NCBI GenBank assembly: GCA_945865325.1
Contig: CAMBFA010000004.1
Coordinates: 114-64,113 of the forward strand
Reading direction: 5' to 3'
Length of the DNA: 64,000 nt
Source of the DNA: Candidatus Kuenenia stuttgartensis
GTDB taxonomy: Bacteria; Planctomycetota; Planctomycetia; Pirellulales; UBA1268
Positions 25,552-43,248 of this stretch are shown here, in pieces (position 1 is the first letter of the stretch; each line of letters opens with the position of its first letter). The notes beneath the pieces were generated by a model that saw only the letters and a program-made list of their open reading frames with translations, did not search any database and had not been told where the DNA came from. Both the position numbers and the translations under genes were made by a program.

Positions 25552-25805
25552 GACGGGGAATCGGCGAGAGCCGCGCGGAGGGGGTCTCGGGCCGAGGCTG
25601 GGAAAAAGCCCCCTGGCGGGCGCCCGACCGCTTCTTCATGGCCGCGCCGCGGCCAACCACCACCTGGGAATCCCGATTTTTCCCAGGTAAATCGACGATT
25701 TCACGGAATTCGTCGCCCCCTGGTCGCGTGACCTGAAAAGATGGGCAAAGATTAACGGAAGCGGAAAGTCTCCGTTGCCAATCCCCGCACGCGCGCACGG
25801 CCACT

Positions 25806-27149
25806 ATGTCCCGACGGCTGACCGCTCCAGCGACCGCCCCGATCGGTGCTTCCACGCTTCCTTCCCCACGGTTCGGCCACTGGCCCTGGATCCTGGGAGC
25901 GATCCTGTTGACGGCCTTCTGCGGATGGTGGGTGAGCCAGACGCTCGGCGAAAAGGAGCCGATCATCGTAGGGATCCTCCACGCGCGGTCCGGCCCGACC
26001 GCCCCCCAGGAACGATTGCTCATCGACGCCGAGGTGCTGGCGCTCGAGGAGATCAATCGCACCGGCGGCCTGCTGGGACGCAGGGTGAGCTGGGTGATCG
26101 CGGACGGTGGCAACGACGGCACATCCTTCGCGCGGCAGGCTGAACGCCTCATCGGGGTCGACCGCGCGGACGTCCTTATCGGCTGTTGGTCGGCAACGAG
26201 TCGGCGGGCCGTGGTGACGGTCGTGGAAGCGAACGATCACCTCCTCGTTCATCCCAGCCGCCACGAGGGATTCGAGGAGTCGCCGAACGTGGTCTCGATG
26301 GGACCACTCCCGAACCAGCAGATCGCACCGGCCGTGGCGTGGTGCAGGGAGACCATGTCGGCTCGCCGGATCTTCATGGTCGGGACGGACGATCCCTGGG
26401 CGAGATCCGCCGGCGCGTTTCTCGGCGACCAACTGGCGGGGATCAACGCCTCGATCGTGGGAGAGGAGTACCTCCCATTGGGCAGCATCGACGTCGCCCC
26501 GACCATCGAAGCGATCATCACCTCGAACCCCGACGTGGTGTTTAGCCTGCTCGCGGGGGAGTCGGCCGCGGCGTTGCTGCGCCAACTCCGTGAGGCCGGG
26601 GTGCGCCCGGCCGATCTGCCGGTGATGATCTTCTCCGTCAGCGACGACGAACTGCGCAGCATGCCGCCGGATGATGTGACCGGAAACTACGTCGTTGCTG
26701 GCTATTTCCCCGGGAACGAACGGACAGCCGACCAGACGTTCGTCCCGGCATTCCGCACGCGGTATGGCAACGATCGCCCGACATCAGAACAGGCGATGGC
26801 CGCCGATGGCGCCGTTCGGCTCTGGGCAGAAGCGGTGAGGGAAGCAGGCACCGCCGATGTGGCGATTGTCCGTTCGACGATCCGGCACCAGACCCTCCCG
26901 AGCCCGGAGGGGGTGATCGCCGTCGATCCGGAGAACCGCCATGCCTGGCGGAATCTCTCGGTGGGTCGGATCCGCCCAGACGGGCAGATCGATACGCTCT
27001 GGTCGACACGGGGGCCGACCCGCCCGACCCCGTTCCCAGCGACCCGTTCGCGCCCCGAATGGGGGCGATTCATCGCATCGCTCCAAAGAGAGAAGGCCCT
27101 CCGCCGAACGGCCGAACCCTCCGCACCCCGGCCGGGGATCGCCCCATGA
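25806..27149 (+). CDS. membrane-anchored type-1 periplasmic binding protein, AmiC/UrtA (amide/urea-binding)-like
   Basis: 447 aa with an N-terminal TM helix (WPWILGAILLTAFCGWWV). Then IIVGILHARSGPTAPQERLLIDAEVLALEEINRTGGLLGRRV, the hallmark N-terminal pattern of AmiC/UrtA-family PBPs. Its stop TGA (27147-27149) overlaps the ATG of the next gene (27146). Confidence 0.75.
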   Translation: MSRRLTAPATAPIGASTLPSPRFGHWPWILGAILLTAFCGWWVSQTLGEKEPIIVGILHARSGPTAPQERLLIDAEVLALEEINRTGGLLGRRVSWVIADGGNDGTSFARQAERLIGVDRADVLIGCWSATSRRAVVTVVEANDHLLVHPSRHEGFEESPNVVSMGPLPNQQIAPAVAWCRETMSARRIFMVGTDDPWARSAGAFLGDQLAGINASIVGEEYLPLGSIDVAPTIEAIITSNPDVVFSLLAGESAAALLRQLREAGVRPADLPVMIFSVSDDELRSMPPDDVTGNYVVAGYFPGNERTADQTFVPAFRTRYGNDRPTSEQAMAADGAVRLWAEAVREAGTADVAIVRSTIRHQTLPSPEGVIAVDPENRHAWRNLSVGRIRPDGQIDTLWSTRGPTRPTPFPATRSRPEWGRFIASLQREKALRRTAEPSAPRPGIAP

Positions 27150-29143
27150 GCTCCGTGCGCCCCCCGCGGATCGAGAGCACGACGAAGCGTTCGATCGTCG
27201 GCCGACTGCTCTTCTGGTTCCTGATCATCGCCTTGGTGCCCTGCGCGATCCTCACCGCGACGACGGCCCGCCTGGCCACCCGCACGATGGAGGATTCAGT
27301 CCACGCCAATCTCGCCCGGATCGCGGCGACCAAGGCGGCGGAGCTCGAGAGCGATGCCGCCGGCCGGATCCGCGATGTCACGGCTCTCTGCCAATCCCCG
27401 GATCTCATCCGGGCCCTCCGCCCGCAGGACGCCGGTGACAGCGGAGCGACCAGCGGCACCGGCTACCTCGACGCACTCGCCTCGTCGATGGCCTTCTCCC
27501 GTGCCATCCTCATCGACGCCGACGGGCGGATCATCCACTCCGCCGACGACCTGCTGCCGATCGGCGCCTCACTGGTGACCGGGGGATTGGCCACGTCGGA
27601 GCTGGCTTCCGGATTCACCCGTGCCCGATCGCTCCTTCAGGCCGATCTGACGGGGTTCCAAACCTACGGCTCGTTGCAGCGCCCCCTGGCTTTCGCCGTC
27701 GGGCCGATTCTCGACGGCGGACGCCTGGTGGGGGCCCTAGCCCTCGGGTTCGGAACCGATCGGATCTACTCGGCACTCGATGACTTCGCCGGACTCGGAA
27801 AGACCGGGGAGATCATCGTGGGGCTGCGGATCGGCGACGACATGCTCGTCACGGCTCCCATCCGGCAAGCCCCCGATGCGGCCTTCCGGATGAGGATCCC
27901 CGTCACGGCCGAGCGGGGAACGGCCCTCCCCGCCGCGGCCGCTGGCGAACGGGGCCAGGGGGTGATCACCGACTACCGCGGTCATCGGGTCGTTGCCGCC
28001 TGGTGTCACCTCCCCAGCTATCGGTGGGGCATGACCGTCAAACAGGATGCCAGCGAGGCCTTCGCGCTCGCCGATTTCCAGCGGACCCTCGTCATCGGTC
28101 TCTCGATCGCCACGATCGCCGGTGTGACGCTCGCCGCGTTCGTCGTCGCAAGAACGATTTCGACCCCGATCCGCACCGCGGTCCACATCGCCCGGCAGGT
28201 TGCCGCCGGCGACCTCCGCGGCCAAATCGCCGTTCACTCCGACGACGAGACCGGTGCCCTGTTGACGGCTATCCAGACGATGACCAACGATCTGCGGGGC
28301 CTCATCGGCCGGATCCAGAAGTCTTCGGTCGCCCTGATCTCAACGGCCACGGCGATGCAGGCCACCAGCGCCGAGCAGCAGCAGGTGATCGCCGACTACG
28401 GTGCGTCGACGAGCCAGGCGGTGGCGGCCGTCAAGCAAATCACCGTCACCAGCCATGAACTGGTGCGGACGATGACGGAAGTCAACGACATGGCCGCGCA
28501 CACCGGGGAAATGGCCGCCGGCGGCCGGGTGAATCTCGCGAGCATGGACGGCACGATGCGGCAGCTCGCCGACAGCACGACTTCCTTCAGCACGAAACTC
28601 TCCGTCATCAGCGAGCGTGCCGTAAACATCAACCTCGCGGTGACCACGATCGCGAAGGTGGCGGACCAGACAAACCTGCTCTCGATCAACGCCGCCATCG
28701 AGGCCGAAAAGGCCGGCGAGTACGGTCTCGGCTTCCTTGTCGTCGCCCGGGAGATCCGCCGCCTGGCGGACCAAACGGCCGTGGCGTCGCTGGACATCGA
28801 ACGGATGGTCAAGGAGATGCAGAATGCCGTGTCGGCCGGCGTCATGGAGATGGACAAGTTCAGCGAGCAGGTGCGGGGGGGCGTAAGCGAGATCGGCGAA
28901 ATATCGGCACGGCTCGGCGACATCATCTCGGCCGTGCAAGGGATCTCTGGACGTTTCGGCCAGGTCACGGAGGGCATGAGGGCGCAGTCCCAGGGCGCCG
29001 AACAGATCCGCGAGGCGATGGTCCGGCTGGCCGAGGGCGCGGCGCGGACGGCCGAGTCGCTCAACGATTTCAACGGTGCCACGGTTCACCTCCGCGAGGC
29101 GGTCGGTGACCTCAAGGAAGAGGTGTCCCGGTTCACGATCTGA
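27146..29143 (+). CDS. methyl-accepting chemotaxis protein (TM - Cache-like periplasmic domain - TM - HAMP - MA), WspA-position
   Basis: Start MSSVRPPRIESTTKRSIVGRLLFWFLIIALVPCAIL at 27146. Periplasmic segment with Cache-like strands (ILIDADGRIIHSA, ITDYRGHRVVAAWCHLPSYRWGMTVKQD). HAMP (PIRTAVHIARQVAAGDL...ETGALLTAIQTMTNDL). Signalling hairpin ADQTNLLSINAAIEAEKAGEYGLGFLVVAREIRRLADQT. Confidence 0.9.
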   Translation: MSSVRPPRIESTTKRSIVGRLLFWFLIIALVPCAILTATTARLATRTMEDSVHANLARIAATKAAELESDAAGRIRDVTALCQSPDLIRALRPQDAGDSGATSGTGYLDALASSMAFSRAILIDADGRIIHSADDLLPIGASLVTGGLATSELASGFTRARSLLQADLTGFQTYGSLQRPLAFAVGPILDGGRLVGALALGFGTDRIYSALDDFAGLGKTGEIIVGLRIGDDMLVTAPIRQAPDAAFRMRIPVTAERGTALPAAAAGERGQGVITDYRGHRVVAAWCHLPSYRWGMTVKQDASEAFALADFQRTLVIGLSIATIAGVTLAAFVVARTISTPIRTAVHIARQVAAGDLRGQIAVHSDDETGALLTAIQTMTNDLRGLIGRIQKSSVALISTATAMQATSAEQQQVIADYGASTSQAVAAVKQITVTSHELVRTMTEVNDMAAHTGEMAAGGRVNLASMDGTMRQLADSTTSFSTKLSVISERAVNINLAVTTIAKVADQTNLLSINAAIEAEKAGEYGLGFLVVAREIRRLADQTAVASLDIERMVKEMQNAVSAGVMEMDKFSEQVRGGVSEIGEISARLGDIISAVQGISGRFGQVTEGMRAQSQGAEQIREAMVRLAEGAARTAESLNDFNGATVHLREAVGDLKEEVSRFTI

Positions 29144-29181
29144 TCGCTTTCCCTCATCCGCGGTCACCGGGCTTCGACGCC

Positions 29182-29673
29182 ATGCAACTCCTCACCTTCA
29201 CCGCCGGTGGACAGACCTACGCCATCGAGGCCAGAAGTGTCGTCGAGGTCCTCCCGGCGGTGCCTGTCCGCGCGGTCCCCAGACTGCCCGATTACGTCCT
29301 CGGGGTCGTCGGATACAGGGGGAGGTTGATTCCGGTGATCGACTTGGCCAAGCGGCTCACCGACGAGTTCTCGGCCCGCCGGTTGAGCACCCGATTGCTG
29401 ATCGTCGAAATCCCGAAGCGGGAGCCGACTGAGAGCCCCACTCCGCCGTCGACGGCCCGCCTGGGGATCGTGGCGGAGAACATGGTCTCGACGCTCCGTT
29501 CGGAGGACGTCGATACGCTGTTCCCGGCGATGTGCCTGGAAAGTTCCCCATACTTGGGGAGAATCGTCCGATTGAACGGGCAGACCGTCCACATGCTCGT
29601 CGTCGAAAATCTCCTTCCGGCAGACCTCGCCTCGGGTCTGTTCGCGGCCACACCGGAGCCGCCGTCGCCATGA
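29182..29673 (+). CDS. cheW: CheW-like coupling protein (WspB-position)
   Basis: 163 aa. MQLLTFTAGGQTYAIEARSVVEVLPAVPVRAVPRLPDYVLGVVGYRGRLIPVIDL is the canonical CheW fold signature. Confidence 0.88.
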   Translation: MQLLTFTAGGQTYAIEARSVVEVLPAVPVRAVPRLPDYVLGVVGYRGRLIPVIDLAKRLTDEFSARRLSTRLLIVEIPKREPTESPTPPSTARLGIVAENMVSTLRSEDVDTLFPAMCLESSPYLGRIVRLNGQTVHMLVVENLLPADLASGLFAATPEPPSP

Positions 29674-31061
29674 ATGAGCCCTCCGCATTGCCCTCCACCG
29701 CGGCCGAGGAGGTGCTCCGACGCTGGATCGGCCTTGATCCCCACAGCATCGGGGAGGCAGCCATCCGCCGTGCCGTCCGCCTGCGGATGCTCTCCCTGGG
29801 GATCGGCGACGTCCAGACGTTCGTCCGCCTCGTGGAGACCGACAGAACGCAACGCGATCGGCTCGTCGAGGAGGTCGTCGTCGCGGAGAGCTGGTTCTTC
29901 CGCGACCATCAGGTCTACGACCATCTCCGCCGATTCGTGGCCGCGAGGATCACGGCCCGTCCCAGCGACCCGGTGAGGATTCTGAGTGCCCCCTGTGCGG
30001 CGGGGGAAGAGCCGTATTCGATCGCCATGTCACTCCTCGATTCCGGACTGCAGCCGGAGCAGTTCCGCATCGATGCCATCGACATCAGTCGCGTCGCGCT
30101 CTCCAAGGCGCAGACTGCCCGCTACTCCACCAACGCGTTCCGGAATGCCGACAGCGGTTTCCGCGATCGCTGGTTCCGCATGGATGGCGGGAGTGCCGTC
30201 CTTGACGAGTCGGTCTCCCGCTGCATCAGCTTCGCCTGGGCCAACATCCTCGAAGAATCGTTTGTGACCGGAGCGATCGACTCCGGAAGAGCCCCCTACG
30301 ATGTCGTCTTCTGTAGGAACCTGCTCATCTACCTCACCACGGATGCACGCTCGGCGGTGGAGCGGTCGATCGACCGGTTGCTCAAGGACGATGGCATCGT
30401 CGTTCTCGGGGCCGCTGAACCGGCGATCCTCCAAGGGAACTGGGTCGCGGATTCCGCCGGATCGACCTTCACGCTCCGGCGGGGAGTCTCCGGGGAAAGC
30501 GCCCGCTGGCCCTCCCTCGCCGGTCGATCTGCCCTCGCCGCCCCGCGACGCCCCACACCAACCTTGACGCCACCGAACCCCGCGCCGGCATATCCTGCCC
30601 CAGCGCCCCCGCCGCCGCAGGCCAGTCCGAGTCGACTTCCCCCGCCGGTCGATCCCCCCGCTCCCGTTGCCCTTCCCCCCACCTCCACGACGTCCACTGA
30701 TCTCCGCTGCGACGATTCCGGCGGCGGGTCGGCCACACAGAGCGTTCCCCTGATCCTGGCGAATGTGAACGCTTTGGCGAATGCCCGGAGATTCTCCGAG
30801 GCGATCGCCCTGTGCGAATCGGCGCAAAGGGACATCGGCCCCTCGGCGGATCTGTATTTCATTGCCGGGATCATGCACCAGACGTCCGGCAGTCTGGCGA
30901 TCGCCGAGGATTGCTTCCACAAAACCCTGTACCTCGACGCCAGCCACGACGAGGCCCTCCTCGCCCTCTCCCTCCTCGCCGAGCAGCGCGGTGACTCAGG
31001 CCAGGCGTCCCAGTACCGACGCTCGGCGCTGCGCGTCGTCGAACGGAAGGGGGACCGATGA
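29670..31061 (+). CDS. cheR: CheR-type MCP methyltransferase with C-terminal TPR domain (WspC-like)
   Basis: ATG at 29670 overlaps the cheW stop (ATGA). Contains ESWFFRDHQVYDHL, the SAM-binding ILSAPCAAGEEPYSIAM, and DVVFCRNLLIYL. A Pro-rich linker leads to TPR helices (FIAGIMHQTSGSLAIAEDCFHKTLYLDASHDEALLALSLL). Confidence 0.9.
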   Translation: MNEPSALPSTAAEEVLRRWIGLDPHSIGEAAIRRAVRLRMLSLGIGDVQTFVRLVETDRTQRDRLVEEVVVAESWFFRDHQVYDHLRRFVAARITARPSDPVRILSAPCAAGEEPYSIAMSLLDSGLQPEQFRIDAIDISRVALSKAQTARYSTNAFRNADSGFRDRWFRMDGGSAVLDESVSRCISFAWANILEESFVTGAIDSGRAPYDVVFCRNLLIYLTTDARSAVERSIDRLLKDDGIVVLGAAEPAILQGNWVADSAGSTFTLRRGVSGESARWPSLAGRSALAAPRRPTPTLTPPNPAPAYPAPAPPPPQASPSRLPPPVDPPAPVALPPTSTTSTDLRCDDSGGGSATQSVPLILANVNALANARRFSEAIALCESAQRDIGPSADLYFIAGIMHQTSGSLAIAEDCFHKTLYLDASHDEALLALSLLAEQRGDSGQASQYRRSALRVVERKGDR

Positions 31062-31846
31062 ACGACGATGCCTCCGCACGTCTGCCAGATAACCTGCCGC
31101 CCACCATTCGTGCGGGGGCGGCACCGCAGCCTTCGATGCCGGGGCAAGAGCACCGGGAGGAGTGCTGGCGGCACATCGGCGTCACCGGAGACCGGAGCTG
31201 CAAGGAATTGCAGACCTACATCCACTGCCGGAACTGCCCGGTCATGGCCGAGGCGGCCAGGGCATTCTTCGATCGCTCGGCGCCGATCGGCTATCTCGAG
31301 TCCTGGTCGGGGATTCTCGAGGAAAGGGGCTCCCGGCCAGATCCCGAAGTGGTCAGCGTCCTCGTCTTCCGGCTCGCCGACGAATGGCTCGCCCTTCCGA
31401 CCGCCGTCCTGGTCGAGGTCACCAAGGACCGCCGGTGCCATCGCGTGCCGCACCGGACCAGCGGTGTGCTCGAAGGCCTCGTCAACATCCGTGGGCAGTT
31501 GCAATTGTGCGTCTCCGCGTGGCGATTGCTCGGGATCGAAGAGAGGGTACCGGGCCACGCCCCGCCCGCGACCGAACCGCTCCGCACCGCCGATCCGGAG
31601 CTCCGCCGCCTGCTCGTCGTCGAGCGTCAGGGGCGCCACGGCCAGGACCGCTGGGTGTTTCCGGTCGATGAGGTGGCCGGCGTCGTGCGCGTCGGGCAAG
31701 CCACACTCCGCGCGGTTCCGGCCACCGTCAGTCAGTCGGGGGCCCGCTACTGCCAGGCCCTGTTCGATTGGCAGGAGGTGATCGTGGGAATCCTCGACGA
31801 GACCCGATTCCTCGACGCCCTCCTCGATCACGTCCGGACCAACTGA
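31058..31846 (+). CDS. CheW-like protein with N-terminal C-x11-C-x8-C-x2-C motif (WspD-position)
   Basis: ATG at 31058 overlaps the cheR stop (ATGA). N-terminal ECWRHIGVTGDRSCKELQTYIHCRNCPV. Then a CheW domain (VLVFRLADEWLALPTAVLVEV...LEGLVNIRGQLQLCVS). Confidence 0.85.
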   Translation: MNDDASARLPDNLPPTIRAGAAPQPSMPGQEHREECWRHIGVTGDRSCKELQTYIHCRNCPVMAEAARAFFDRSAPIGYLESWSGILEERGSRPDPEVVSVLVFRLADEWLALPTAVLVEVTKDRRCHRVPHRTSGVLEGLVNIRGQLQLCVSAWRLLGIEERVPGHAPPATEPLRTADPELRRLLVVERQGRHGQDRWVFPVDEVAGVVRVGQATLRAVPATVSQSGARYCQALFDWQEVIVGILDETRFLDALLDHVRTN

Positions 31847-31868
31847 CGATGTCACGATCCCTCATTCA

Positions 31869-34262
31869 ATGGGCCGGAACGGAAAGGAGCATGCTGTGGC
31901 GGAGGATCTGAGCGGCTTCTCCATGCTCGAGCTGTTCCGGCTCGAGGCCGACACCCAGACGGCCCTGTTGTCGACCGGGATCCTGGCCATCGAACGCCTC
32001 GAGTTGTCCCCCCTGACGATCGAAGCGATGATGCGCGCCGCCCACTCACTCAAGGGTGCCGCCCGTATTGTCGGCGTCGAACCAGCCGTCGAGGTTGCCC
32101 ACGCACTCGAGGACTGCTTCGTTGCCGCCGGCCGCGGCGAGATCCACGTCCGACCGGAGCATGCCGATCTGCTCCTCTCATGCGTCGATTTCCTCGCTTC
32201 GGTCGGCCATGCCGACGACGCGCTCCAGCCCGACGGCCCTTGGACGGCGAAGGCGATGGCACTGGTGGCCGAACTCGGACGGATGCATTCATTCACCGAC
32301 GATTTTGCCGTCGACGCCGGGGCGCCGACCGTTCTGGCACCGCCATCGGCCCACGCTCCGCCGAATTCCACCTCCCTGCCGCCGGCTCACGAGGAGTCGC
32401 CCTCCGGACCGGAAACGGCTCTCCCCCCTGCGACAACACCGCTCCCCGCGGAAGAAACACCACGCATCGGCGACGACCCGACTGCCACCGAGCCGGCCCT
32501 GGAGTCGAGCGACCGGGTCGTGCGGGTTTCAGCGGACAGCCTGACGAGACTCGTAGGCCTCGCCGGCGAGGCCCTCGTCGAAACCCGGCAACTACACCCT
32601 TTCGTCGATGGACTCCTCGGGCTGCGGGCCTCCCAGATCGAACTCTGCGACGCTCTGGCAGCCCTCGAGGATCGGACTTCCGCCGACGGCATCGCCCTGC
32701 CAGCGTCGGTCTCGATGGCGGTTGAACGGGCGCGGCAGCGGGCCGACGCCATGCTGTCGACCCTCATGAAACACGTCGATGATTTCGAGAGCTTCGCCCG
32801 CCGCAACGAGGATCTCTCCGGCAGGCTCCACCACGAGGTGATCGTCAGCCGGATGCGTCCGCTTGCCGACGGGATCCGGGCCTTTCCACGTCTCGTCCGT
32901 GATCTCGCCCGATCGCTCGACCGACAGGTCCGATTCCAGGTCCGTGGGGAACAGACCGGCGTCGACCGCGACATCCTCGACAAACTCGAAGCCCCTCTCT
33001 CGCACCTCATCCGCAATGCCATCGACCACGGCATCGAGTCCCCCGGGGAGCGGATCGCCGACGGAAAGGCCCCTTCCGGTTCGATCGTCCTCGAGGCCCG
33101 CCACCGCGCCGGGATGCTCCAGATCCTGATCACCGATGACGGTCGGGGGATCGATGTCGAGCGGCTCCGCGCCCGTGCCGTGGAACGCGACCTCGTCCCA
33201 CGGCACGTGGCCGAACGACTGACCGAGTCGGAGGTGCTGGAGTTCATCTTCCTGCCAGGATTCTCCACCCGGGAACAGGTCACCGAGATCTCCGGGCGTG
33301 GGGTTGGCCTCGATGTCGTCCAGAGCATGGTGAAGGCCGTCGGCGGGACCGTGCGCGTCTCCAGCCAACCGGGACGACACACCGTCTTCACGCTCCAACT
33401 GCCGATCACGATGTCGGTCGTCCGCGCGCTCCTGGTTGAGGTGGCCGGTGAACCGTATGCGTTCCCGCTGACGCGGATCGACCACATCCAATTCGTGGAG
33501 CAGGCCGACATCCGCACCGTCGAGGGCCGGCAGTTCTTCCGCCGCGACGAGGAATCGATCGGGCTGGTGATGGCCGAACAGATCCTCGGCACCGGAACTG
33601 GCAGCAGCCCGCGCGCCCCGATGCCGGTCGTCGTCATCAGTGACCGCGGCCAGCAGTTCGGCCTGATCGTCGACGCCTTCCTCGGCGAACGGGATCTCGA
33701 GGTCCGCCCCCTCGATCGACGGCTCGGAAAGATCGCCGACATCAACAGCGCTTCGCTTCTGGAGAATGGCGATCCGGTGCTCATCGTCGATGTCGAGGAC
33801 CTCGTCCTGTCGATCGACAACATGCTGATGGGGCGGCGGTTGTCCCGGGTGGACTTCGAGCATCTCGTGCGCCGAGCGCGGAGAACGAAACGGGTCCTCG
33901 TTGTTGACGACTCTATCACCGTCCGGGAACTCGAGCGCCAACTGCTCCATTCGCGGGGGTTCGACGTCGACGTTGCCGTGGATGGCATGGATGGCTGGAA
34001 TGCGATCCGTGGTGGCGACTACGATCTGGTGGTGAGTGATGTCGACATGCCCCGGCTCGACGGGATCGGATTGGTATCCCTCATCAAAGGGGACCCGCTC
34101 CGCAAGGACCTTCCCGTGGTGATCGTTTCCTACAAGGACCGCGAGAGCGACCGGATCCGCGGACTCGACGCCGGAGCGAATCGCTACCTGACCAAGACCA
34201 GTTTTCATGACCAGACTTTCATATCCACGATCATCGACCTGATCGGCGAGCCGAACGCGTGA
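31869..34262 (+). CDS. cheA: hybrid CheA histidine kinase with C-terminal receiver (Hpt-HATPase-CheW-REC; WspE-like)
   Basis: 797 aa. Hpt site MRAAHSLKGAARIVG. HATPase N/G boxes (LSHLIRNAIDHGIE, DDGRGID, GRGVGLDVV). CheW-like domain. REC domain (RVLVVDDSITVRE...DLVVSDVDMPRLDG...VSYK). Confidence 0.92.
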   Translation: MGRNGKEHAVAEDLSGFSMLELFRLEADTQTALLSTGILAIERLELSPLTIEAMMRAAHSLKGAARIVGVEPAVEVAHALEDCFVAAGRGEIHVRPEHADLLLSCVDFLASVGHADDALQPDGPWTAKAMALVAELGRMHSFTDDFAVDAGAPTVLAPPSAHAPPNSTSLPPAHEESPSGPETALPPATTPLPAEETPRIGDDPTATEPALESSDRVVRVSADSLTRLVGLAGEALVETRQLHPFVDGLLGLRASQIELCDALAALEDRTSADGIALPASVSMAVERARQRADAMLSTLMKHVDDFESFARRNEDLSGRLHHEVIVSRMRPLADGIRAFPRLVRDLARSLDRQVRFQVRGEQTGVDRDILDKLEAPLSHLIRNAIDHGIESPGERIADGKAPSGSIVLEARHRAGMLQILITDDGRGIDVERLRARAVERDLVPRHVAERLTESEVLEFIFLPGFSTREQVTEISGRGVGLDVVQSMVKAVGGTVRVSSQPGRHTVFTLQLPITMSVVRALLVEVAGEPYAFPLTRIDHIQFVEQADIRTVEGRQFFRRDEESIGLVMAEQILGTGTGSSPRAPMPVVVISDRGQQFGLIVDAFLGERDLEVRPLDRRLGKIADINSASLLENGDPVLIVDVEDLVLSIDNMLMGRRLSRVDFEHLVRRARRTKRVLVVDDSITVRELERQLLHSRGFDVDVAVDGMDGWNAIRGGDYDLVVSDVDMPRLDGIGLVSLIKGDPLRKDLPVVIVSYKDRESDRIRGLDAGANRYLTKTSFHDQTFISTIIDLIGEPNA

Positions 34263-35299
34263 CCGTGGTCGGCAGCCGTGGTGGGGGGGGCAGAGTGCGA
34301 ATCGGAATCGTCAACGATGTGCGGGCCGCGAGCGAGGCCCTGCGCCGGATTGTCACCGGTCTGACGGATCATGAGATCGCCTGGACGGCCAGCGATGGCG
34401 TCGAGGCGGTGGCGGCTGCGAAACGTGACCGCCCCGACCTGATTCTCATGGACCTGCTCATGCCGCACATGGACGGCGTGCAGGCCACCCGGCAGATCAT
34501 GCTCTCGGCCCCGTGCGCGATCCTCGTCGTCACGGCGACCGTGAGCGGCAACATCTCGCTCGTCTACGAGGCGATGGGGCATGGCGCGCTTGACGCCGTC
34601 GACACGCCGGTCCTCGGACCGGCGGGGGAGGTTCAGGGTGCGCAGGCGCTGGTCGACAAGATCGCCATGATCGGGAAACTCGTCGGCACTTCCCCCGATA
34701 CCCGGCGCTCGAGCCGCGTGACTCCCGCTTCCGGCCCGCCGAAGCTGCTCGTCATCGGGGCCTCCACCGGGGGGCCGAAGGCGATCTCCGAAATCCTCCA
34801 ACCGTTGCCGGTCGACTGGAACGTCGCCGTCGTGGTGGTGCAGCACGTCGACATGGCCTTCGCCCCGGGGTTGGCAAAATGGCTTGGCGACCGGACCGGA
34901 AGGCCCGTGCGGGTGGCCGAGGAGGGCCAGCAACCGCTCGCTGGCGACGTCCTCGTTGCCGGCACCAATGACCATCTCGTGTTCACCAAGGATCGCACGC
35001 TGGCCTACCGTGAGGAACCGAAACACCTCTTTTTCAGGCCGAGCGTCGATGTCTTCTTCTGGAGCGTCGCCGAGTACTGGCCCCAGGCGGGCACGGCCAT
35101 CCTGCTGACGGGGATGGGAACTGACGGCGCTAAGGGCCTGCTCGCCCTCCGGGCCCGTGGCTGGCACACGATCGCCCAGGATCAGACCAGCAGCGTCGTG
35201 TGGAGCATGCCCAAGGCGGCCATCGAACTCAACGCCGCCTGCGAGGTGCTCCCGATCGGCAAAATGTCCGAGGCGATCAGCCAACACCTGGCGAAGTGA
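34259..35299 (+). CDS. cheB: CheB-type protein-glutamate methylesterase with N-terminal receiver (WspF-like)
   Basis: GTG at 34259 overlaps the cheA stop (GTGA); a slightly later start at VRIGIVND is possible. REC domain (DLILMDLLMPHMDG). Esterase (LLVIGASTGGPKAI, VVVQHVDMAFAPGLAKWL, GMGTDGAKG). Confidence 0.9.
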   Translation: MTVVGSRGGGGRVRIGIVNDVRAASEALRRIVTGLTDHEIAWTASDGVEAVAAAKRDRPDLILMDLLMPHMDGVQATRQIMLSAPCAILVVTATVSGNISLVYEAMGHGALDAVDTPVLGPAGEVQGAQALVDKIAMIGKLVGTSPDTRRSSRVTPASGPPKLLVIGASTGGPKAISEILQPLPVDWNVAVVVVQHVDMAFAPGLAKWLGDRTGRPVRVAEEGQQPLAGDVLVAGTNDHLVFTKDRTLAYREEPKHLFFRPSVDVFFWSVAEYWPQAGTAILLTGMGTDGAKGLLALRARGWHTIAQDQTSSVVWSMPKAAIELNAACEVLPIGKMSEAISQHLAK

Positions 35300-36779
35300 G
35301 GCTGCCGCGGCCCTCTATGGCGATCACCCGCATCGCCGTGAGCACGGTAGCTTCGGCCGTTCCCGGCCGCCGGTCGAGGGCTATGACCTGAACGGCGACG
35401 GGCAAGCCGGCACTCCCCCGGTCGGTCTCGATCGCCGCGATCTCCACCGGGTCGTAAGAGCGGGGGCGGCCAGATTCCTCGTCGGCCCGGACCGTCGTTA
35501 CCGGTACCGCCCCAGCGGCGAGATCGAGGAGGTTCGCCAGCAGACAGGGCGCTGCCGCCAGCAGCAGACGCGAGGCCGTGCCGTGGCGGAGGGCGGGGAG
35601 CGCGGAGACCGGACAGACGATGCAGTCATGGGCCGCAGCCCACCGCGACACGATCCGATCAATGGCCCCGCGATCGGAGAGGAGTGAGTCGCGTGCCGCG
35701 CCGCCCCGGGGTCCGGTTCGACGCAGCGCTTTGGCCTCCACGCCCCGCCCCCCCCAGACACAGGCTGCGGCGACCAGCCCCCTTGCCCACCCCGGGATGC
35801 GCGCCAGGGCGAGGAGCCGACGCACCTGATCGATCGGCCTTTCTCCGGCGAACAGGCGGCGGATGTCGGCCCCTCCGTCGGCCGAGAGAATGCCGAGATG
35901 CAACCAAGCGGCTTCCGCGGCGATGTCGGCATCGAGTCGCGTCACGGTGGCACCGGCGGCCGCAAGCCGCTCCACCGCCATGGCGACGGCCCGGCGCACG
36001 GCCGGCGATGGGGCCAGCGGACCGGCGTCGTCCCACCACGCCACTCGCAGGCCCTCGGCCTGGGGGGCAGGATCCGCCGGCGCACCACACAGCCCCCGCA
36101 ACCCCGCGGCGACATCGTCGACCGTCCGCGCGAGCAACCCTGCGCGTGAACGCTGCCCCGCGAGCCCCGGCATGGTCTCGAAAGCCCCCCCGCCCCCGAG
36201 CGTCGCTGAGCGTGGCAGCAGCCCGACGATCCCGCAGGCGTGCGCTGGCTGTCGGATGCTTCCGGCGAGATCGTTTCCGATCGCCAGTGGGACACACCCG
36301 GCTGCGACCAGCGCGGCATCCCCCCCGCTGCTCCCCCCCGGGCCCCGATCGGTATGCGTGGGATGGAGCGTTCGCCCCCACACCGGGTTGTCGGTCTCGT
36401 GGAGATAGAGCGCCTGGGGCACGTTCCCCTTGCCGATGACGATCGCCCCGGCGGCCCGCAATCGCGTCACGATCTCGGCATCGCCGTCGTCGAGCGCCGC
36501 CCGCCGGCTGCGGAGGCCGAGCGAGGTGACCATTCCCCGGACGGGAAAACACTCTTTGATACTCACCGGCACGCCCGCAAGCGGGCCGGTGGGAAGATCC
36601 GCGAGCCGGGAGGCTTCTTCGAGGGCCGCGGCACCGCGGGGCTGCACGAGGGCGTTGAGGCCGGCATGGGCGCTGCGGCATCGTTCGACCGCGTCGGTCA
36701 CGACGTCCAGCGGATCGATCGCCCCGGCCGTGACGGCGGCGACGATTCCCACGACTCCGTCCGGGGGCCGTTGGTCCAT
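35277..36779 (-). CDS. amidase-signature family amidase
   Basis: Start MDQRPPDGVVGIVAAVTAGAIDPLDV at 36779 inside ORF 35277..36881. Contains GVPVSIKE, IVIGKGNVPQ and the AS motif GGSSGGDAALVAAGCVPLAIGNDLAGSIRQPA. Its 3' end overlaps the cheB 3' end by 23 nt (35277-35299), convergently. Confidence 0.88.
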   Translation of the reverse strand: MDQRPPDGVVGIVAAVTAGAIDPLDVVTDAVERCRSAHAGLNALVQPRGAAALEEASRLADLPTGPLAGVPVSIKECFPVRGMVTSLGLRSRRAALDDGDAEIVTRLRAAGAIVIGKGNVPQALYLHETDNPVWGRTLHPTHTDRGPGGSSGGDAALVAAGCVPLAIGNDLAGSIRQPAHACGIVGLLPRSATLGGGGAFETMPGLAGQRSRAGLLARTVDDVAAGLRGLCGAPADPAPQAEGLRVAWWDDAGPLAPSPAVRRAVAMAVERLAAAGATVTRLDADIAAEAAWLHLGILSADGGADIRRLFAGERPIDQVRRLLALARIPGWARGLVAAACVWGGRGVEAKALRRTGPRGGAARDSLLSDRGAIDRIVSRWAAAHDCIVCPVSALPALRHGTASRLLLAAAPCLLANLLDLAAGAVPVTTVRADEESGRPRSYDPVEIAAIETDRGSAGLPVAVQVIALDRRPGTAEATVLTAMRVIAIEGRGSLTSPGVG

Positions 36780-36816
36780 CCGATCAAAACTCCGCAGGCA
36801 AAGGAAGCGGTGCCGA

Positions 36817-38613
36817 TCAGAACGAACGGGGCTTGGCGGTATCGTCCGGCGGATTTCCCGGCACCGACAGGGGGCCGACATCGACGGCCCAGATCGTGCC
36901 CGGATCTCCGAGGACGCCGACCACCATCACCCGCTCCCCCGGCTCCGCCCGGGGAGCCGTTTGGGCCAGGAACGACAACACGCCGGGCGTCTCGCCGCCA
37001 ACGGAGAGTCGCCCTCCCCACCAGGGCCCGACAGGGCGCACCGCCTCGAGCGTGGCGATCAGAATCGCCCCTTCAGAGGGTCGCTTCCCGCTGGCCAGCC
37101 ACATGCTGCCGAGGAGCTCCAAATCATCACGCCGTTCGACGGCCAACCTCCTGCCCAGATCGGCGAACCGGTCGACGACGTCAGACGAACGCCGGCCCGA
37201 CTCAATCGCCGCCCGCTCCATCCTGGCCAGTTCGAGGGCGACGAGGCTCATACTTCGATACCATCCCACCTGGGCCTGCTCGAGGTCGGCAGGATCCCCG
37301 CCAACAGCGCCCGCGGCGAGGTTGTCGGTTGCCGCCGCTGCCGCAGCGATCGCGCCGTCGACTGCGGAGAAGTCGATCACCGTTCCCCTGACGTCAGGCC
37401 CGACGTTCCGTTCCGCTGCCCCGACTCGAAGCGGATCGACGACGATCTCGACCTCATCAATCGGGTCGGCCGGCGACTGGGCGGGAAGACCGGCATCCGG
37501 CGCCACGACCGTCTCACCAGCCGGCTGATCTCCAGCCAGCGACAAGCCCGCGTCGATGGCGGGCGCCACGGGGTACGCCACCGGTTGCGACGCGCCATCG
37601 GAGAGAGCATCGCCCGAGGACGGACTTGCGGCAATCTGGTCGAGGGTCAAGCGGCCAGGCCCATCGGTGTCATTCTCGGCCCGCCGCTCCCCCACCGCCG
37701 GGCGGAATCGGGCCGGCAGGAACGATCGCACCACGGCGGGGAGATGCGGGGTGATTCGGAGGGGATCACGCTGAAACCCGAACAACAGGATCGCGAGGGT
37801 CACGGGGATTGCCAGCACCCCTCCGAGCACGACACCGACAGCCTGCCCCATCCCCCCGCGGGCCGCCGACGGACGCGGGCCGGACGTCACGAACGGGCCG
37901 GCAGGGACCGCCGCCGGTTGGGGCACTCCGAAGGCACCGATATCAATCGACTCGCCGGGGGATTCGCCGATCCCCTGCGAGTCGCCTTGGAAGGAATCGC
38001 CGATAGCCGGATCGACCGCTTCGGCCGCACCGACGAAGGCACCGAATCCGATCGACTCCGAGGGCACGTCATCCCGCCCCGTCGCGACGATGTCACGCCA
38101 CTCGTCGGCGGGCTTGCCGTCATCCTCGCCCGGATCCTCACCCCCCTTTTCAGTCAGGTCGATCCCCTTGAAAAAGTGATCCTCACGGTCCACCGCGCTG
38201 ATCGAGCGATCCTGCGGTGGGGTGGCCACCGGCACGACGTCGCTCGGCGACGTGATGCCAGACTGGCCGGTGCCGATCTGGACCTGCGACGAGTGGGAGA
38301 CCCCGGAGGCCTCGGGATCATCATGGAGGTTCGTCGCCGCCAGCACATCAGGCCCCTCGGCCGCATCGCCAGCGCCCGGATCATCGAGCCAGCCATCGGG
38401 CAGTCCGTCGACGCGCGAGCGCTCAGTGTCGCCGGAGACCCCTCCGGCCCAGAGAGCCTCTTCCAAGCCGGGGTCGAACCGATCCGCCGCCGCGGGTTCG
38501 TTTCCCCCGGGAGCATCCTCCGGAGACAGCTCGGGCGGGGATGCTACCCCCTCATCCAAACCAGGCGCCGGGTCATGCCCACCGAGACCCTGCTGCTGCG
38601 TGTCGTCCGCCAT
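36817..38613 (-). CDS. hypothetical membrane protein (acidic Pro/Asp/Gly-rich N-terminal half, one TM helix, structured C-terminal domain)
   Basis: Start MADDTQQQGLGGHDP at 38613. TM helix MGQAVGVVLGGVLAIPVTLAILLFGF around mid-protein. C-terminal ~250 aa are non-repetitive (WYRSMSLVALELARMERAAIESG...). I recognise no family. Confidence 0.55.
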   Translation of the reverse strand: MADDTQQQGLGGHDPAPGLDEGVASPPELSPEDAPGGNEPAAADRFDPGLEEALWAGGVSGDTERSRVDGLPDGWLDDPGAGDAAEGPDVLAATNLHDDPEASGVSHSSQVQIGTGQSGITSPSDVVPVATPPQDRSISAVDREDHFFKGIDLTEKGGEDPGEDDGKPADEWRDIVATGRDDVPSESIGFGAFVGAAEAVDPAIGDSFQGDSQGIGESPGESIDIGAFGVPQPAAVPAGPFVTSGPRPSAARGGMGQAVGVVLGGVLAIPVTLAILLFGFQRDPLRITPHLPAVVRSFLPARFRPAVGERRAENDTDGPGRLTLDQIAASPSSGDALSDGASQPVAYPVAPAIDAGLSLAGDQPAGETVVAPDAGLPAQSPADPIDEVEIVVDPLRVGAAERNVGPDVRGTVIDFSAVDGAIAAAAAATDNLAAGAVGGDPADLEQAQVGWYRSMSLVALELARMERAAIESGRRSSDVVDRFADLGRRLAVERRDDLELLGSMWLASGKRPSEGAILIATLEAVRPVGPWWGGRLSVGGETPGVLSFLAQTAPRAEPGERVMVVGVLGDPGTIWAVDVGPLSVPGNPPDDTAKPRSF

Positions 38614-42615: not shown

Positions 42616-43248
42616 TCAGACGAGGCCGCGACGCACGGCCCAGACAGCAGCCTGGGTGCGGTCGGAGACCGCAATCTTTCGGAGGATGTTTTGGACATGC
42701 TCCTTGACCGTCTCGACACTGATCGTCAATGACTGGGCTATCTCCTTATTGGAGAGCCCCAGCGCCATATGCCGGAGCACCTGCGTCTCGCGCTGCGTGA
42801 GCGGGATGTCGGGATCGGGCGTGGCCACCCGGTTGGCCATCGTTGTTGCCACCCGGCGGAGCTCCCCAGCCTTGGCCGGGAGTTGGCCGGCGGCGGCGCC
42901 GGTGATCGCCGCGATGATCTCGCTCCGCGAGGCACCCTTGAGGATGTAATCGTGGGCCCCCGCAGCTACCGCACGGGCGACGTAGGTCGGGTTGTCGAAT
43001 GTCGAGAGCATCACCACCCGGGCCGTCGGAAGTTCAGCCCGGAGTTTCTCGAGTGTCGCCAGCCCATCCTTGCCGGGCATCCGGATGTCGAGGAGCACGA
43101 CATCGGGCTTGAGCTTCTTGGCCAGCTTCAGTGCCTCATCACCGTTGGACGCTTCCCCGAGAATTTTGACCTCGGATCCCGCCAGCAGGCTGGCCAGCCC
43201 ACGGCGCACCACTTCATGGTCATCGGCGATCACAACTTTGACGGACAT
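42616..43248 (-). CDS. NarL/FixJ-family response regulator (REC + LuxR-type HTH)
   Basis: 210 aa. VVIADDHEVVRRGL...DVVLLDIRMPGKDG...MLSTFD. C-terminal LTQRETQVLRHMALGLSNKEIAQSLTISVETVKEHVQNILRKI. AAGGAG Shine-Dalgarno ~10 nt upstream of the ATG. Confidence 0.9.
   Translation of the reverse strand: MSVKVVIADDHEVVRRGLASLLAGSEVKILGEASNGDEALKLAKKLKPDVVLLDIRMPGKDGLATLEKLRAELPTARVVMLSTFDNPTYVARAVAAGAHDYILKGASRSEIIAAITGAAAGQLPAKAGELRRVATTMANRVATPDPDIPLTQRETQVLRHMALGLSNKEIAQSLTISVETVKEHVQNILRKIAVSDRTQAAVWAVRRGLV

Follow-up and report, generated by a model that had tools for sequence, protein, structure and literature searches.

The Wsp pathway of Pseudomonas responds to surface or envelope cues, and the signals of Wsp-like pathways of the alternative cellular functions (ACF) class are, to our knowledge, mostly unknown. 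The present analysis concerns a chemosensory operon at positions 25806-35299 of a 64-kb stretch of planctomycete DNA (contig CAMBFA010000004.1, hereafter the window), in which the gene of a periplasmic binding protein (PBP) precedes the gene of a chemoreceptor, or methyl-accepting chemotaxis protein (MCP). Clusters whose CheR carries a TPR domain are associated with ACF pathways, the outputs of which include PP2C phosphatases, and the REC-SpoIIE (PP2C) architecture is listed among these outputs (PMC3447774). The WspA orthologue of P. syringae is a 40H receptor (PMC11253619). In a 2021 review of signalling that depends on binding proteins, genes of such proteins directly 5' of chemoreceptor genes are described from an archaeon only (PMC8050422), and the bacterial arrangement analysed here is an unusual one. 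On the results presented below, it is reasonably probable that the operon joins, in one unit, a complete Wsp-type (ACF, non-motility) core to a dedicated two-protein sensor input.

The probable genes of the whole window were scanned with Pfam profiles, and NCBIfam models were also applied. The operon comprises the following genes:

25806..27149, + strand: UrtA/AmiC-like PBP of 447 aa with a predicted membrane anchor, the proposed co-receptor (Peripla_BP_5 E 2.6e-105; Peripla_BP_6 also matched)
27146..29143, + strand: chemoreceptor MCP of 665 aa, with a first transmembrane (TM) segment, a dCache-like periplasmic domain, a second TM segment, HAMP and MCPsignal (Pfam)
29182..29673, + strand: CheW-like coupling protein, WspB-like (Pfam CheW 7.8e-23; JGI name 'WspB' for an identical protein)
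29670..31061, + strand: CheR methyltransferase with a C-terminal extension (Pfam CheR 1.9e-33)
31058..31846, + strand: second CheW-like protein, WspD-like, with the N-terminal four-cysteine motif CWRHIGVTGDRSCKELQTYIHCRNC (Pfam CheW at residues 101-253; JGI name 'WspD')
31869..34262, + strand: hybrid CheA-REC kinase, WspE-like (Pfam Hpt, HATPase_c, CheW and REC)
34259..35299, + strand: CheB methylesterase with REC, WspF-like (Pfam REC and CheB_methylest; NF009206 at 423 bits, cutoff 342; JGI name 'WspF')

The seven genes thus run on one strand in the order PBP, dCache-MCP, CheW, CheR, CheW, CheA-REC and CheB, as a preliminary description of this DNA had claimed; its comparison of this order with that of Wsp is likewise borne out by the domains and coordinates, and the names given by JGI to identical or orthologous proteins (WspA for the MCP, WspB, WspD and WspF) agree with it. 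Four junctions are 4-nt start/stop overlaps, ATGA at 27146, 29670 and 31058 and GTGA at 34259, exactly where they had been placed, and the first of these couples the PBP gene to the MCP gene. The remaining two intergenic gaps are 38 and 22 nt long, and a search of the + strand within the operon for terminator-like or promoter-like sites found none. When the window is compared with five members of its clade, the ratio of nonsynonymous to synonymous substitution rates (dN/dS) of all seven genes lies between 0.04 and 0.36, and the set is under purifying selection and made up of functional genes. All seven proteins are held verbatim in public collections, in a Planctomycetota metagenome-assembled genome (MAG; accessions RLS83185-RLS83190). 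The binding-protein-headed che operon of a freshwater planctomycete is confirmed as a real observation.

The linkage of the first two genes extends far beyond the window. When a single genome of each GTDB species was scanned, 237 loci encoded a relative of the PBP, and the best 80 of these, all on planctomycete contigs, were mapped by placing the window proteins with tblastn. An MCP gene directly follows the PBP gene in 75 of the 77 loci that have at least 1 kb of downstream sequence, and the other two show fragmentary MCP matches; conservation of this neighbourhood across Planctomycetota, which the preliminary description had proposed as a check, is therefore upheld for the PBP-MCP adjacency. 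Downstream sequence of 8.5 kb or more is available for 43 loci; the che set is complete in 37 of them and only the PBP-MCP pair occurs in six, and three shorter loci look like the latter. In these pair-only loci (L018, L028, L049, L056, L059, L062, L063, L067 and L069), no che genes occur within up to approximately 10 kb downstream. Their MCP signalling domains are approximately 70% identical to that of the window, and therefore these sensors presumably plug into a che core encoded elsewhere. In Singulisphaera sp. PoT (L066; complete genome), whose PBP shares 47% identity with that of the window, the seven genes recur in unchanged order, flanked by different neighbours (UvrB, NadC and biotin/lipoate ligase). 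Together, the pair-only loci and the Singulisphaera neighbourhood imply that the conserved unit is the PBP-MCP pair and that its linkage is independent of local synteny. Genes for permeases of ATP-binding cassette (ABC) transporters were found neither in the window by the Pfam scans nor in the mapped flanks of two relatives (L001 and L002). When the window's clade is compared with the main group, identity is approximately 51% for the PBP, 50% for the MCP sensor domain and 87% for the MCP signalling domain, so the PBP and the sensor domain appear, from their sequences, to have diverged in parallel. A word-indexed search that used only the sensor domain of the MCP returned three matches and is uninformative on distant relatives.

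The PBP itself bears the public name 'urea ABC transporter substrate-binding protein' (NCBI, JGI). It scores 308.4 bits against the UrtA model TIGR03407, which is below the UrtA cutoff of 492.75, and only 30 bits against the LivJ-type models of NCBIfam. Its closest entries in the Protein Data Bank are 8tg1 (E 2.9e-86), UrtA 8hic/7s6e/7s6f (approximately 1e-62) and AmiC 1pea (4.5e-45), and this similarity to solved structures is decisive for the predicted fold. The motif VGILHARSG...INRTGGLLGR, from which the preliminary description had read an AmiC/UrtA-like protein, is present, and the lineage agrees with the Peripla_BP_5, TIGR03407 and structural matches. At the N-terminus, approximately 25 residues that include Arg are followed by an uncharged hydrophobic segment of 18 residues (W26-V43), which stops 9 residues short of the first strand of the fold. 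The same arrangement is seen in 96 of 104 full-length homologues and is read as a predicted signal anchor, in keeping with the membrane anchoring that had been suggested. Tethering as a lipoprotein was considered and rejected, as a lipobox occurs in 0 of the 104 homologues.

The ligand pocket was compared by aligning the family to 8hic at nine positions. In Prochlorococcus UrtA the pocket is formed by W120, S122, Y141, Q144, E146, Y190, F192, N246 and S274, and mutation of S122, Q144, Y190 or N246 abolishes or strongly lowers urea binding (PMC10392092). The residues at these positions are as follows:

UrtA 8hic and 8tg1: W-S-Y-Q-E-Y-F-N-S
Main Pirellulales group, 63 MCP-linked proteins: W-S-Y-A-E-Y-W-(V)-A
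Pair-only group and Singulisphaera: W-S-Y-A-E-Y-W-V-(A/S)
Window's clade, 10 sequences: W-(A/T)-H-R-E-D-W-(A/G)-(S/T)
AmiC, same positions: Y-S-Y-P-E-Y-Y-V-T

In the window PBP, whose pocket reads W-A-H-R-E-D-W-A-S, the residues corresponding to S122, Q144, Y190 and N246 are A, R, D and A, so that all four essential urea contacts are replaced. The R, the D, the E and the W at the F192 position are invariant across the 10 members of its clade. The amide-pocket positions of 1pea (Y83, S85, Y104, P107, Y150 and Y152) correspond to W, A, H, R, D and W in the window and to W, S, Y, A, Y and W in the wider MCP-linked family, which also has V at the N246 position. The pocket of this wider family is AmiC-like by alignment, and since the contacts to the second NH2 group of urea are lost as in AmiC, the main MCP-linked family would bind a mono-amide-like or similar small carbonyl compound. 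In the window's clade, on the other hand, the pocket has been remodelled to include Arg, Asp and His, and consequently its ligand is not expected to be urea and is probably not a simple amide; urea is an unlikely ligand of the window PBP. The dN/dS of the PBP is 0.17-0.36, and that of the other six genes is 0.04-0.35; decay of the PBP in this clade is ruled out by these values and by the intact reading frames, and the charged pocket is conserved under purifying selection. Of the two ligands that had been entertained for the window protein, a small amide or urea, urea is thus disfavoured by the four replaced contacts, and the AmiC-like pocket on which an amide would depend is found in the wider family and not in the window's clade. 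The same analysis suggests that the urea-transporter annotation is wrong for several hundred planctomycete genes.

The chemosensory core is intact at key catalytic and phospho-acceptor positions. In the MCP, TM segments at residues 15-45 and 313-342 flank a dCache-like domain of 267 aa, which matches dCache_1 at 30.5 bits (gathering score 45) over profile positions 1-239 of 240. From the end of HAMP to E525 at the hairpin tip there are 140 aa (20 heptads), and another 140 aa run from the tip to the C-terminus; these 20 + 20 heptads place the receptor in approximately the 40H class, an estimate by length and not a class call with a profile model. The C-terminal extension of CheR, approximately 200 aa, consists of a Pro-rich linker and a helical tail. 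This extension is clearly present, and its identity as TPR, which had been given for CheR, finds weak matches (Pfam TPR E 0.04-0.13; NCBIfam TPR_hemY E 7.8e-5, residues 371-453). The cysteine motif that had been pointed out in the second CheW, CW..IG..GD.SC.EL.TYIHCR(N/S)C, lies at 31163-31237 (+), corresponding to residues 36-60 ahead of the CheW domain. It is invariant in 50 of 50 orthologues, Singulisphaera included, and could be a metal- or redox-binding site. In CheA, the phospho-His motif HSLKG (H59) is intact, as is the D-D-D-S-K residue set of its REC domain with the acceptor Asp, and the acceptor Asp of the CheB receiver is also intact. CheY, CheZ, CheC, CheD and CheV are absent from the cluster, and a multidomain output is linked only in the Singulisphaera operon; with the hybrid CheA-REC, this architecture fits the ACF class of Wuichet and Zhulin.

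The output would lie outside the operon in the window. No GGDEF protein was found in the 64 kb by the Pfam scans, and a tblastn search of the window for a REC-PP2C protein or a sigma-54 activator gave generic REC matches only. The only other REC protein is a NarL/FixJ-type regulator (42616-43248, -) downstream of hemC, approximately 7 kb from cheB; no histidine kinase gene adjoins it and nothing ties it to the operon, and an orphan phospho-acceptor is a possible role. Among the 36 relatives with sequence after cheB, an amidase gene follows in 31, an IS200-like transposase, PATR protein or FAD oxidoreductase gene in four of the other five, and a REC-GGDEF gene in none. In Singulisphaera sp. PoT, an eighth gene (L066:19504-20706, +) encodes REC-SpoIIE (PP2C) and has a 4-nt overlap with cheB. 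No other linked output regulator was seen in the family. The earlier statement that no output regulator is linked thus stands for the window, where a convergent amidase follows cheB, and is specific to its lineage.

Based on the results presented above, the following mechanism may be proposed. The PBP would be tethered through its N-terminal anchor to the outer side of the cytoplasmic membrane and made in step with the receptor through the coupled ATGA junction. It would bind a small periplasmic ligand, most likely one passed to the receptor, and would dock on the dCache-like domain of the 40H receptor in the way that LuxP docks on LuxQ or BasB on BasT. The receptor would then control the hybrid CheA-REC kinase via the two CheW-like proteins, while CheR, with its C-terminal extension, and CheB would provide methylation-based adaptation. 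By analogy with the Singulisphaera operon, the output would be a response regulator that is not linked to the operon, with a REC-PP2C phosphatase as the most plausible candidate. Several points weigh against this proposal. Contact between PBP and MCP is something that we infer, as are the output and the kind of ligand; the dCache assignment of the window MCP is below the Pfam threshold (30-33 bits against 45); the anchor of the PBP could instead be a signal peptide that is long and cleaved; the remodelled pocket, with Arg and Asp facing the cleft, could mark a ligand-independent protein and not a new specificity; and the REC-PP2C output is seen in one distant relative only (47% PBP identity) and not in the window. 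The core idea of a binding-protein-assisted ACF/Wsp-type pathway is nevertheless supported. Two findings had been named in advance as telling against it, namely, a PBP of an ordinary transporter family without conserved linkage to the MCP and a WspR-like gene that normally follows cheB in relatives and was rearranged away in the window; neither was obtained, given the score below the UrtA cutoff, the low LivJ-type score, the lack of linked permease genes and the MCP adjacency, pair-only loci included, in the one case, and the amidase or unrelated genes after cheB in the other.

That the PBP is an ordinary urea transporter component merely adjoining a che operon is suggested by its automated names, by UrtA being its best NCBIfam match and by the UrtA type of its nearest solved structures. 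This reading is largely refuted, and we regard it as extremely improbable: the match falls below the family cutoff, the urea contacts are replaced, the gene overlaps the MCP gene by 4 nt, the pairing persists in different neighbourhoods, permease and ATPase genes are not nearby, and a membrane anchor is predicted. It is rather unlikely, with more to be said for it, that the PBP of the window's clade has ceased to bind any ligand and serves the receptor in a structural or regulatory role, with Arg152 and Asp197, for instance, paired so as to lock the cleft, and with the dCache domain sensing directly. The R, D and H at pocket positions would agree with such a role, the dN/dS of the PBP is the highest or near-highest in the operon, and dCache domains commonly bind ligands directly; the clade-invariant R, D, E and W and a dN/dS well below 1 indicate a constrained site, which fits binding or a structural role alike. 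The full MCP/CheW/CheA/CheR/CheB set could also belong to a chemotaxis system that steers the swimming of swarmer cells via an unlinked CheY, and many planctomycetes have flagellated swarmer cells. We hold this to be very unlikely, since the hybrid CheA-REC, the two CheW-like proteins (one with four Cys), the CheR extension and the missing CheY, CheZ, CheC, CheD and CheV speak against it, the JGI names agree with a Wsp-type assignment, the Singulisphaera operon ends in REC-PP2C and not in CheY, and gene order and features are those of Wsp/ACF clusters (PMC3447774). Finally, the gene order and orthology names that match WspA-F would suit a Wsp system proper whose wspR has been displaced, and in which a REC-GGDEF protein encoded elsewhere gives an output through cyclic diguanylate (c-di-GMP). 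With REC-GGDEF found neither after cheB in relatives nor in the window, and REC-PP2C as the sole linked output, this reading is unlikely. A broader version of the Wsp-type operon with a two-protein sensor deserves mention as a tentative idea that is more probably wrong than right: a widespread, undescribed planctomycete module, in which a tethered UrtA/AmiC-derived co-receptor and a dCache MCP would give a Wsp-type pathway a defined chemical input, with the pocket re-tuned by lineage (from a urea-type ancestral transporter to an amide type in most Pirellulales and then to the charged Arg/Asp/His type) and with a REC-PP2C partner-switch output rather than c-di-GMP.

Two further features border the operon:

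25736..25754, + strand: candidate promoter/operator motif AAAAGATGGGCAAAGATTA, 52-70 nt 5' of the PBP start codon (consensus GAAAGATGGGCAAAGATTG)
35277..36881, - strand: amidase-signature enzyme, the convergent neighbour (Pfam Amidase 1.7e-76)

The consensus GAAAGATGGGCAAAGATTG, which includes two AAAGAT half-sites 10 nt apart, resembles a sigma-54 promoter but is 1 nt too short. It is present in 60 of 78 loci, nearly always 10-106 nt 5' of the inferred PBP start, and only 64 matches to it occur in the 1.22 Mb of locus sequence. The window has a single match, where 0 are expected by chance, and the pair-only loci and Singulisphaera lack the element. In most Pirellulales relatives (43 of the 61 loci with enough upstream sequence), a divergent sigma-54 activator gene lies between lpxA and the PBP gene. 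The example at L002:8443-9654 (-), approximately 400 aa, is PspF-like, with the AAA+ domain starting at residue 18 and a long low-complexity linker ahead of HTH_8. A receiver or other N-terminal regulatory domain is absent, and without a REC domain the activator cannot be the phospho-acceptor. It is also missing from the window's clade (between 25552 and 25805) and from L012, the same lineage that has the remodelled PBP pocket. A canonical -24/-12 site (GG-N10-GC) upstream of the PBP gene was found neither in the window nor at a consistent position in 54-78 relatives; a sigma-54 promoter for the PBP gene was accordingly rejected, and the activator of the relatives could not be tied to the operon. 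At the other end, cheB and the amidase gene share 23 nt at their 3' ends (35277-35299); in L001 and L002 this overlap measures 23-40 nt. No room is left for separate terminators. The amidase was rejected as a functional partner, being absent in Singulisphaera and the pair-only loci in spite of its frequency elsewhere. The block of giant TPR protein, LpxA, operon and amidase is syntenic anyway, so that a functional link is at most putative.

The GC content of the window is approximately 64-71% (2-kb windows), and its other genes are housekeeping genes, which encode 2-oxoacid dehydrogenase complexes, a 1537-aa TPR protein, LpxA, an M32 peptidase, an XerC-like recombinase, HemC, LptF/G, Nuo subunits and ferrochelatase. 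Planctomycete-type syntenic MAG contigs (L004, L011, L012, L034, L036, L040 and others) carry organism labels that do not match, namely, 'Candidatus Kuenenia stuttgartiensis', 'Chitinophaga', 'Chitinophagaceae' and 'Planctomicrobium piriforme', although the block is of the Pirellulales type; these labels are probably taxonomic mislabels in public records.

Relatives of the PBP domain also occur in fused form. An exhaustive search yielded 829 representatives at E <= 1e-30, and among nine high-scoring ones that were scanned, four are Ser/Thr-kinase fusions (P0333, P0342, P0344 and P0348) and one is a fusion to a hybrid histidine kinase (P0385); P0362 is a TIR fusion. The full urea signature WSYQEYFNS is kept in 61 of the 148 best representatives, P0342 and P0348 included, which suggests that these two are urea-sensing kinases. 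It is not kept in P0333 (WSYQEYWAS) and P0344 (WSYQEFWAS). The kinase fusions among close relatives indicate that use of the Peripla_BP_5 fold as a sensor is common, and the MCP-linked, stand-alone PBP with an altered pocket is a distinct variant of it. The input of a Wsp-like pathway is here a separate protein with a soluble domain, which can be expressed and screened for ligands. To what was known, the present analysis adds a conserved PBP-MCP module, evidence for a ligand other than urea, clade-specific remodelling of the pocket and lineage-specific linked regulators.

Among known systems, the operon resembles Pseudomonas Wsp, having in common with it the order MCP, CheW, CheR with C-terminal extension, CheW, CheA-REC and CheB, a receptor of approximately 40H, and the JGI/KEGG-type names WspA/B/D/F on planctomycete orthologues. 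In contrast to Wsp, WspR (REC-GGDEF) is not seen in the window or after cheB in relatives, REC-PP2C is the sole output found linked in a relative, the sensor domain of the receptor is dCache-like, and a binding protein heads the operon. In the absence of WspR, the core is Wsp-like rather than a Wsp system. The divergent sigma-54 activator of most Pirellulales relatives recalls the Che3 system of Myxococcus xanthus, where the NtrC-like CrdA gene is divergent from a che operon with a hybrid CheA and no CheY; unlike CrdA, the planctomycete activator lacks REC and does not occur in the window's clade, and a canonical -24/-12 promoter was not found upstream of the PBP gene.

The sensor pair has its counterparts elsewhere. 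In BasB-BasT and CosB-CosT of Halobacterium salinarum, the binding-protein gene also lies directly 5' of the gene of a dCache-like chemoreceptor, the binding protein is membrane-tethered, transporter genes are unlinked, and BasB is of a related type-1 family, Peripla_BP_6 (PMC8050422). The planctomycete locus is similar, with its 4-nt PBP-MCP overlap, the adjacency in 75 of 77 loci, the predicted anchor of the PBP and the absence of linked transporter genes. However, the archaeal pairs serve flagellar-type taxis toward amino acids or compatible solutes, whereas the planctomycete pair belongs to a diderm bacterium, derives from Peripla_BP_5 (UrtA/AmiC lineage) and feeds a Wsp-like pathway. LuxP-LuxQ of Vibrio similarly combines a co-encoded, signalling-dedicated type-1 binding protein with a double-PAS/dCache-like periplasmic sensor (PMC8050422), but LuxQ is a hybrid histidine kinase and not an MCP, LuxP is a soluble Peripla_BP_4 protein, and the ligand is autoinducer-2 (AI-2). 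With UrtA and AmiC, the PBP has fold and family in common, and the wider MCP-linked family resembles AmiC in replacing both contacts to the second NH2 group of urea (Q144 by A, which is P in AmiC, and N246 by V in both). The PBP differs from UrtA in having no linked permease partner, since urtBCDE genes are not present in the window or in the L001/L002 flanks, and from AmiC in its predicted N-terminal anchor or signal, which would place it outside the cytoplasm, and in that an AmiR/ANTAR partner was not seen in the Pfam scans of the window; the W-A-H-R-E-D-W-A-S pocket of the window's clade fits neither protein. In general, the PBP-assisted ACF operon is a variant of known signalling designs, with the pairing of binding protein and receptor kept across many planctomycete species.

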